Below, piece after piece: positions 35,995-36,357 of a stretch of DNA of 64,000 bases. The notes under the pieces were generated by a model. It was not told the DNA's origin and made no database searches. It was given only the letters and a program-made list of their open reading frames with translations. The translations under genes and the position numbers were made by a program. Every line of letters begins with the position of its first letter. Position 1 is the first letter of the stretch. The DNA comes from Escherichia coli (GTDB taxonomy: Bacteria; Pseudomonadota; Gammaproteobacteria; Enterobacterales; Enterobacteriaceae), in assembly GCF_013122565.1 (NCBI RefSeq), contig NZ_CP053258.1. One strand, 5' to 3'.

Positions 35995-36020
35995 GTTCAG
36001 CGAACGAAGTTTTTAAATAC

Positions 36021-36056
36021 AAAAAAACCGCAATTTGTGGAACACATTGCGGTTTA
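36021..36056 (-). terminator. Intrinsic terminator downstream of tRNA-fMet (minus strand)
   Basis: Minus-strand hairpin AACCGCAAT / ATTGCGGTT followed by a 7-T run, immediately 3' of the tRNA. Confidence 0.6.
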
Positions 36057-36062
36057 TCAGCA

Positions 36063-36139
36063 TTCTAAGTATTGGTTGCGGGGGCCGGATTTGAACCGAC
36101 GACCTTCGGGTTATGAGCCCGACGAGCTACCAGGCTGCT
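36063..36139 (-). tRNA. metV: Initiator tRNA-fMet (CAU anticodon), single copy
   Basis: Reverse complement reads CGCGGGGTGGAGCAGCCTGGTAGCTCGTCGGGCTCATAACCCGAAGGTCGTCGGTTCAAATCCGGCCCCCGCAACCA, 77 nt, the E. coli initiator tRNA sequence as I recall it; which of metZ/W/V it represents is uncertain. Confidence 0.93.
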
Positions 36140-36357
36140 CCACCCCGCGTCCGTGGATGCGCACTATACTCCGCTCGCGTTTTCATGCAACCTTTTTTTT
36201 ACCCCGATCACGGTTCTGGCATGATTTTGAACAAAAACAAATCACTAAAGCCTATTTTTTGTGCAAAATTTGCGTCAGGGAGAGGCTGCTCATTTCATTA
36301 AACGCGGCGGTTTGTTATCTTCGTTGCGCCTTATTTTTTAACCTGAAGAAGAGAACA

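Follow-up and report, generated by a model that had tools for sequence, protein, structure and literature searches.

A probable contraction of the metZWV initiator tRNA array of Escherichia coli to one gene, beside an accessory PTS operon

Introduction

Why does a stretch of Escherichia coli DNA carry a single initiator tRNA gene at the locus where strain K-12 carries three, and does the accessory operon next to it have anything to do with the difference? In K-12 MG1655, the tRNA-fMet genes metZ, metW and metV stand in tandem with a period of 110 bp and spacers of 33 nt, and amiC lies 73 bp past metV; an earlier note on this DNA had named the tandem array, and the MG1655 genome does carry it. 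The level of tRNA-fMet in K-12 follows the gene copy number, and deletion of metZWV or down-mutation of its promoter results in a slight growth defect, cold sensitivity and initiation by non-initiator tRNAs (PMC3017606; reviewed in PMC7949028). Here we report an analysis of the locus in a contiguous stretch of 64 kb (the window), together with a survey of the same locus in complete E. coli genomes.

Materials and methods

The whole 64-kb window was searched for tRNA genes with ARAGORN, positions 30300-36500 were scanned with Rfam models (E <= 1), and protein-coding genes were assigned with NCBIfam models. The promoter of the tRNA gene was assigned by its identity to K-12 and the terminator by RNA folding; a simple promoter and terminator scan had missed the promoter, whose -35 hexamer matches at 3/6 positions, and the terminator, whose loop is longer than 8 nt. 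The size of the tRNA-fMet array was determined by BLAST with queries that span the junctions of the array, in a set of 5,426 complete genomes of E. coli; counts from two longer queries, of 12 kb and 3.5 kb, were left out because these hit a dispersed repeat. Homologues of the five-gene cassette that adjoins the tRNA gene were sought by a scan of species-representative genomes.

Results and discussion

The gene order in the orientation of the window is argA (minus strand), amiC (plus strand), five plus-strand genes, a terminator hairpin, the tRNA gene (minus strand), a promoter region and mltA (plus strand); the features are listed in Table 1. Similarity to K-12 stops right after the stop codon of amiC and right at the 3' end of the tRNA gene, so that the 5,565-bp segment of the window and the 73-bp spacer of K-12 are alternative fillings, each with its own terminator. 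Between the end of the operon and the tRNA 3' end are 78 bp with the terminator hairpin, and the earlier note had likewise placed the operon just past this hairpin. On the other side, the distance between the tRNA gene and mltA is 208 bp and not the 218 bp given there, and 363 bp separate the last gene of the operon from mltA. The MltA protein allele of the window is the commonest allele.

Table 1. Features of the amiC-mltA interval and its flanks (positions in the window)
Feature	Position	Strand	Basis and remarks
amiC, left flank	29254..30507	+	NCBIfam amidase_AmiC, 799 bits; stop codon is the left edge of the variable segment
Variable segment, 5,565 bp, in place of the 73-bp amiC-metV spacer of K-12	30508..36072	+	Low-GC five-gene PTS operon
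Leader hairpin with T9 run	30694-30754	+	Inverted repeat I14; directly upstream of the antiterminator gene
PRD/LicT-like antiterminator	30766-31590	+	NCBIfam; LicT model 230 bits (cut-off 300)
MalX-like EIICB	31622-33202	+	NCBIfam; MalX-type 539 bits (cut-off 632)
PatB/MalY C-S lyase	33202-34410	+	NCBIfam
SIS-domain protein, KpsF/GutQ-like	34379-34975	+	NCBIfam
D-2-hydroxyacid (PGDH-like) dehydrogenase	35047-35994	+	NCBIfam
Intrinsic terminator of the tRNA transcript	36021..36055	-	RNA fold; 10-bp core stem AAACCGCAAU/AUUGCGGUUU, then U7 run
Initiator tRNA-fMet1 gene (metZ/W/V type, anticodon CAT)	36073..36149	-	ARAGORN; Rfam tRNA 61.4 bits; 77/77 identical to K-12 metZ, metW and metV
Divergent metZ/mltA promoter region	36150..36357	.	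206/208 identical to K-12 upstream of metZ
Candidate tRNA promoter	-35 TTGCAT 36185-36190; -10 TATAGT 36163-36168	-	Hexamer positions inferred from sequence
mltA (murein transglycosylase A), right flank	36358..37455	+	NCBIfam PRK11162, 682 bits

The earlier note had counted one tRNA-fMet gene between the operon and mltA, and this count held: ARAGORN returned a single tRNA, a tRNA-Met(CAT), for the entire 64-kb window, and the same gene was the sole Rfam match within the scanned interval. Neither the inter-tRNA spacer of K-12 nor a second tRNA 3' end was found in the 64-kb window at up to three mismatches, and a tandem repeat is likewise absent from it. The window does not contain the three head-to-tail copies with 33-nt spacers that make up the metZWV array; the one gene keeps the place of the array between mltA and amiC. 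All 77 nucleotides of the gene, G46 included, are the same as in metZ, metW and metV, which assigns it to the tRNA-fMet1 type; the gene has the anticodon CAT, and its identity to the K-12 tRNA-fMet1 genes brings with it the marks of a bacterial initiator tRNA, namely the C1xA72 mismatch and three G-C pairs in the anticodon stem, besides G46.

The core promoter and the terminator of the tRNA gene appear intact. The two differences from K-12 in the promoter region, at -67 and -65, both lie upstream of the core promoter; in K-12, expression of metZWV is reportedly abolished by mutations within the -10 element or immediately upstream of it (PMC3017606). In AVS0151, the spacer of the metZ promoter has a G-to-A change at -23. 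On the tRNA strand of the window, the 78 bp that separate the tRNA gene from the last gene of the operon fold with -19.7 kcal/mol (z = -4.9), and none of 200 shuffled sequences was as stable. The terminator is unlike that of K-12 metV; its stem is kept 3' of the tRNA-fMet arrays of E. whittamii and A. hermannii and is missing from K-12-type strains. Compared with the K-12 metZWV operon (63.5 min), the window thus shares the 77-nt tRNA, the promoter region, the divergence from mltA and the orientation towards amiC, but has one gene instead of three, another terminator and a 5.6-kb operon in place of the 73-bp metV-amiC spacer.

Among the 5,426 complete genomes, the tRNA-spacer-tRNA junction, which indicates at least two copies, was detected in 5,195 and the two-junction query, which indicates at least three, in 5,001. 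Queries for a single copy, consisting of terminator, tRNA and promoter, matched 117 genomes with the window-type terminator and 109 with the K-12-type terminator. Arrays of three genes are therefore present in about 92.2% of the genomes, arrays of two in 3.6% (194 genomes) and single genes in about 4.2% (226 genomes), the last value being an upper bound, as collapsed assemblies may be included. Even the closest relatives of the window in this region differ in array size: ETEC1721, WP2-S18-ESBL-07, SBF45 and 12089 have one copy, M18 (by its annotation) and 02E060 (as inferred from match spans) have two, and 10_253 has three.

That reference genomes might have a single copy as their common state, which the earlier note had named as grounds for giving up the idea of a contraction, is not what the survey found. 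Three copies are also present in E. coli E69 and in A. hermannii; in E. whittamii, whose fetched stretch breaks off within the array, at least two can be seen. Since an array of three occurs in another genus as well as in 92% of the E. coli genomes, the single copy is a derived contraction, as the earlier note had supposed. The reverse polarity, with a single ancestral copy here and three copies arising by duplication elsewhere, is highly improbable; tandem arrays can in principle expand, but nothing specific speaks for an ancestral single copy, three copies with the same 110-bp period are found in every major locus type, and the single-copy genomes lie dispersed among relatives that have three copies and identical flanks.

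The locus is therefore probably a metZWV operon that has contracted from three tandem genes to one, independently of the PTS operon. The ancestral state would be three identical 77-bp repeats 110 bp apart, and a deletion of 220 bp would result from unequal homologous recombination, or from replication slippage, between the first and the last copy; two successive losses of one unit would be an alternative route. This would leave the metZ promoter, one tRNA gene and the terminator that in longer arrays stands behind the last copy. The window holds a metZ-type upstream region, one tRNA gene and a terminator of the last-copy type, and two-copy intermediates exist in close relatives. As single copies are found together with the PTS operon, with a type VI secretion system (T6SS) island and with the K-12-type spacer, the contraction is recurrent. 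Array size changes repeatedly and independently of the neighbouring DNA, and the case of the window is an ordinary copy-number polymorphism of a tandem repeat, of a known kind and at a well-studied locus.

The main competitor of such a contraction, which we consider unlikely, is an assembly artefact, in which the true array has three (or two) copies and the repeats with their 110-bp period were collapsed to one unit. By sequence alone, a collapsed assembly is indistinguishable from a biological contraction, and the window is near-identical to no complete genome that would vouch for its assembly. Single-copy genomes are over-represented in several sequencing projects (the AVS, WP/BEC/THO, Zurich STEC/GF/SBF, TUM and IPCEC series), within which they belong to unrelated locus types. 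For J53, a laboratory derivative of K-12, two assemblies are at odds, CP028702 having a single-copy array and CP195070 an array of three among four tRNA-fMet places, and the assembly of strain ST648 has an N exactly at the position of the array. Against a collapse, all 10 independent assemblies with an exact match to the MltA protein, draft and complete genomes alike, resolve three copies; the two spacers of the array differ, so that reads of at least 150 nt can order the units; two-copy intermediates are found in 194 genomes, M18 among them; and four assemblies from different isolate sources share both the island haplotype of the window and the single copy. Part of the apparent copy-number variation may nevertheless stem from assembly pipelines, which matters for tRNA gene counts that are taken from public genomes.

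Strain ST648 (NZ_CP008697.1) had been considered as a natural genome with zero copies and was rejected, the single N that replaces the array between mltA and the PGDH-like gene being a gap. The match span of WB61 is the same as that of strain ST648.

The earlier note had tied the contraction to the accessory operon, and this tie was not borne out by the survey. The PTS operon abuts the tRNA gene in about 636 genomes, of which 13 (2.0%) have a single copy and 623 have at least two, and the 13 fall into several tiers of identity to the window, from 98.7% to 94.7%. A K-12-type spacer of 73 bp adjoins the tRNA gene in about 3,739 genomes, 109 of them (2.9%) with a single copy. Because the 623 operon-abutting genomes keep at least two copies and single copies are as frequent where the operon is missing, the contraction is not tied to the operon. 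In a third class of about 1,050 genomes, the T6SS metV island lies between the operon and the tRNA gene, and the single-copy share is higher (approximately 104 genomes, or 10%). Most of this excess belongs to one ST131-type flank allele, which is 100% identical in about 100 single-copy and about 450 three-copy genomes; the former could be a subclade of ST131 or an artefact.

The T6SS island, which is absent from the window, is known as PAI-CFT073-metV or ETSS2 (PMC2660368, PMC3032704), and it is the element that truly targets this tRNA gene. Its insertion point is the same tRNA 3' end at which the PTS segment of the window is found, and in B2 strains it lies between the PTS operon and the array. 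In NC101 and AVS0151, the island is bracketed by a direct repeat of 60-70 bp that comprises the terminator and the last 14 nt of tRNA-fMet, and the PTS operon lies beyond the distal repeat; the PTS segment of the window, in contrast, has no such att-like repeat with a 14-nt tRNA fragment. The repeat of the island (8696-8790 in the NC101 locus and 2990-3075 in the AVS0151 locus) has the same terminator stem with a different loop. From this make-up of the repeat it follows that the PTS operon was already beside the tRNA gene when the T6SS island arrived.

Traffic of these elements offers another explanation of the single copy, albeit quite an improbable one: the array would have been shortened as a by-product, either when the PTS segment was imported with a crossover between the last tRNA gene of the donor and the first of the recipient, or when a T6SS island was lost imprecisely. 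The window is 99.5-100% identical to ETEC1721-type genomes from the operon to the tRNA gene, 98.6% in the promoter region and 97.2% in mltA, and its outer flanks (21000-29200, 36073-39600 and 44000-52000) match none of the 5,426 complete genomes better than 98.3-99.1%. The drop in identity at the tRNA gene and promoter, together with the unmatched flanks, makes it plausible that a recombination tract ends in the tRNA gene or close to it, and the homologous exchange that the earlier note had proposed as one origin of the segment is likewise plausible (99.5-99.8% identity in the operon versus 97.2% in mltA). The higher frequency of single copies among genomes with the T6SS island, and the tRNA 3' end contained in the repeats of the island, also fit such traffic. 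However, the same operon stands beside arrays of two or more copies in the 623 genomes mentioned above, genomes without any island have single copies as often as those in which the PTS operon abuts, recombination between the repeats of the T6SS island would restore a complete terminal tRNA gene and leave the array untouched, and the excess in the T6SS class largely comes down to the one ST131-type allele, which may be one clone or an artefact.

As an observation on the region as a whole, the accessory operon is 99.5-99.8% identical to those of ETEC1721, M18 and 10_253, versus flanks that reach at most 98.3-99.1% identity to any complete genome, so that the region is a mosaic. The spacer between mltA and tcdA (37456-37693) is 97.5% identical to K-12, but its alignment to ETEC1721 and 10_253 reaches just about 58%. 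Queries that cover the area of this spacer give matches at about 38 sites in each genome, a sign of a dispersed repeat in the vicinity.

A contraction from three genes to one would be expected to lower the number of initiator tRNA genes from four to two (the copy in the window and metY, which lies outside the window), provided that metY is present as in the relatives, and with it the level of tRNA-fMet; in relatives such as ETEC1721, the genome has two places with tRNA-fMet. Kapoor et al. 2011 likewise varied the number of functional tRNA-fMet genes at this locus, with delta-metZWV and promoter-down mutants; the difference is that the reduction in the window, from three to one, is natural, leaves the promoter intact and keeps one gene. 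If the natural contraction is real, strains that are otherwise similar should differ measurably in translation initiation. Laboratory reductions and amplifications of the initiator tRNA gene dosage were reportedly also the subject of Samhita et al. 2014 and Nilsson et al. 2006 (both cited in PMC7949028). We tentatively suggest that the contraction may be real, heritable and recurrent in natural E. coli, many ST131-type strains included, and that the halving from four genes to two might represent a selectable trade-off between fast and accurate initiation and performance under nutrient limitation. If so, natural isolates would form an allelic series for a question that has so far been studied only in engineered K-12. 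The survey, with about 92% of genomes having three copies, 3.6% two and 4.2% one, provides the baseline for the locus.

Is the operon, then, an island that was integrated at the tRNA gene? Two properties of an island are present, an atypical composition (G + C of 0.33-0.47 in the segment versus 0.51-0.56 in the flanks) and a variable presence, the operon being found in 1,686 of the 5,426 complete genomes (31%). In agreement with the earlier note, the far junction gave no sign of integration. With the NCBIfam models, no integrase, and hence no tyrosine integrase, was found among the five open reading frames between amiC and the tRNA gene; no tRNA-derived match of at least 9 nt in the orientation of the gene, and thus no distal direct repeat of the tRNA 3' end, was found in 30400-36072, including the far junction (30508-30766); and no direct or inverted repeats beyond short pairs at chance level flank the 5.6-kb segment. 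An exact 12-nt match to the anticodon stem-loop of tRNA-fMet (CTCATAACCCGA) at 33710-33721, inside the PatB-like gene and on the strand opposite to the tRNA gene, was judged to be due to chance.

Judged by its sequence, the PTS operon is not a classical integrative island, having neither an integrase nor an att repeat, and an island inserted at the tRNA gene is the wrong picture, as the segment and the 73-bp spacer of K-12 stand in for each other with precise boundaries, the stop codon of amiC on one side and the 3' end of the tRNA gene on the other. The earlier note had offered an old, decayed integration as the alternative to exchange; the age of the segment stands, together with its lack of an integrase and att sites, and integration at the tRNA gene does not. 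In A. hermannii, the five-gene cassette lies between amiC and the three-copy tRNA-fMet array beside mltA (67-85% amino-acid identity), and in E. whittamii it occupies the same place as in the window (87-98% amino-acid identity). In Citrobacter, it is found directly 3' of a tRNA-Asp gene (2700-8090 of two fetched loci), in the fadE...dnaQ-rnhA-gloB-mltD region, with no integrase near the cassette. We take the tRNA-Asp site to be the aspV site, which in E. coli carries another T6SS island. The shared location in A. hermannii and E. whittamii and the tRNA-Asp location in Citrobacter point to an old accessory cassette that has no integrase and resides at tRNA-adjacent hot-spots, and at the mltA-amiC locus the PTS operon is at least as old as the genus.

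The same five genes are present in ETEC1721, where the RefSeq annotation agrees with our assignments. The operon resembles BglG/LicT-controlled PTS operons and malX-malY of K-12 in its putative PRD antiterminator, in the T-run and hairpin of its leader, and in its genes for a MalX-like EIICB and for a C-S lyase of the MalY/PatB kind; it differs from them in the additional genes for the SIS-domain protein and the 2-hydroxyacid dehydrogenase, and the scores of its EIICB and antiterminator are all below the equivalog cut-offs. The leader hairpin with its T9 run recurs, strongly conserved, in A. hermannii and in Citrobacter; by analogy with BglG/LicT systems, it is likely to be the antiterminator-controlled terminator of the operon. 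Of the five genes, the PatB-like one diverges most (87% nucleotide identity to NC101). It is 1,209 nt long in the window and in ETEC1721, and in both it overlaps the SIS-domain gene by 32 nt (34379-34410 in the window); in NC101 it measures 1,176 nt and stops before the SIS-domain gene.
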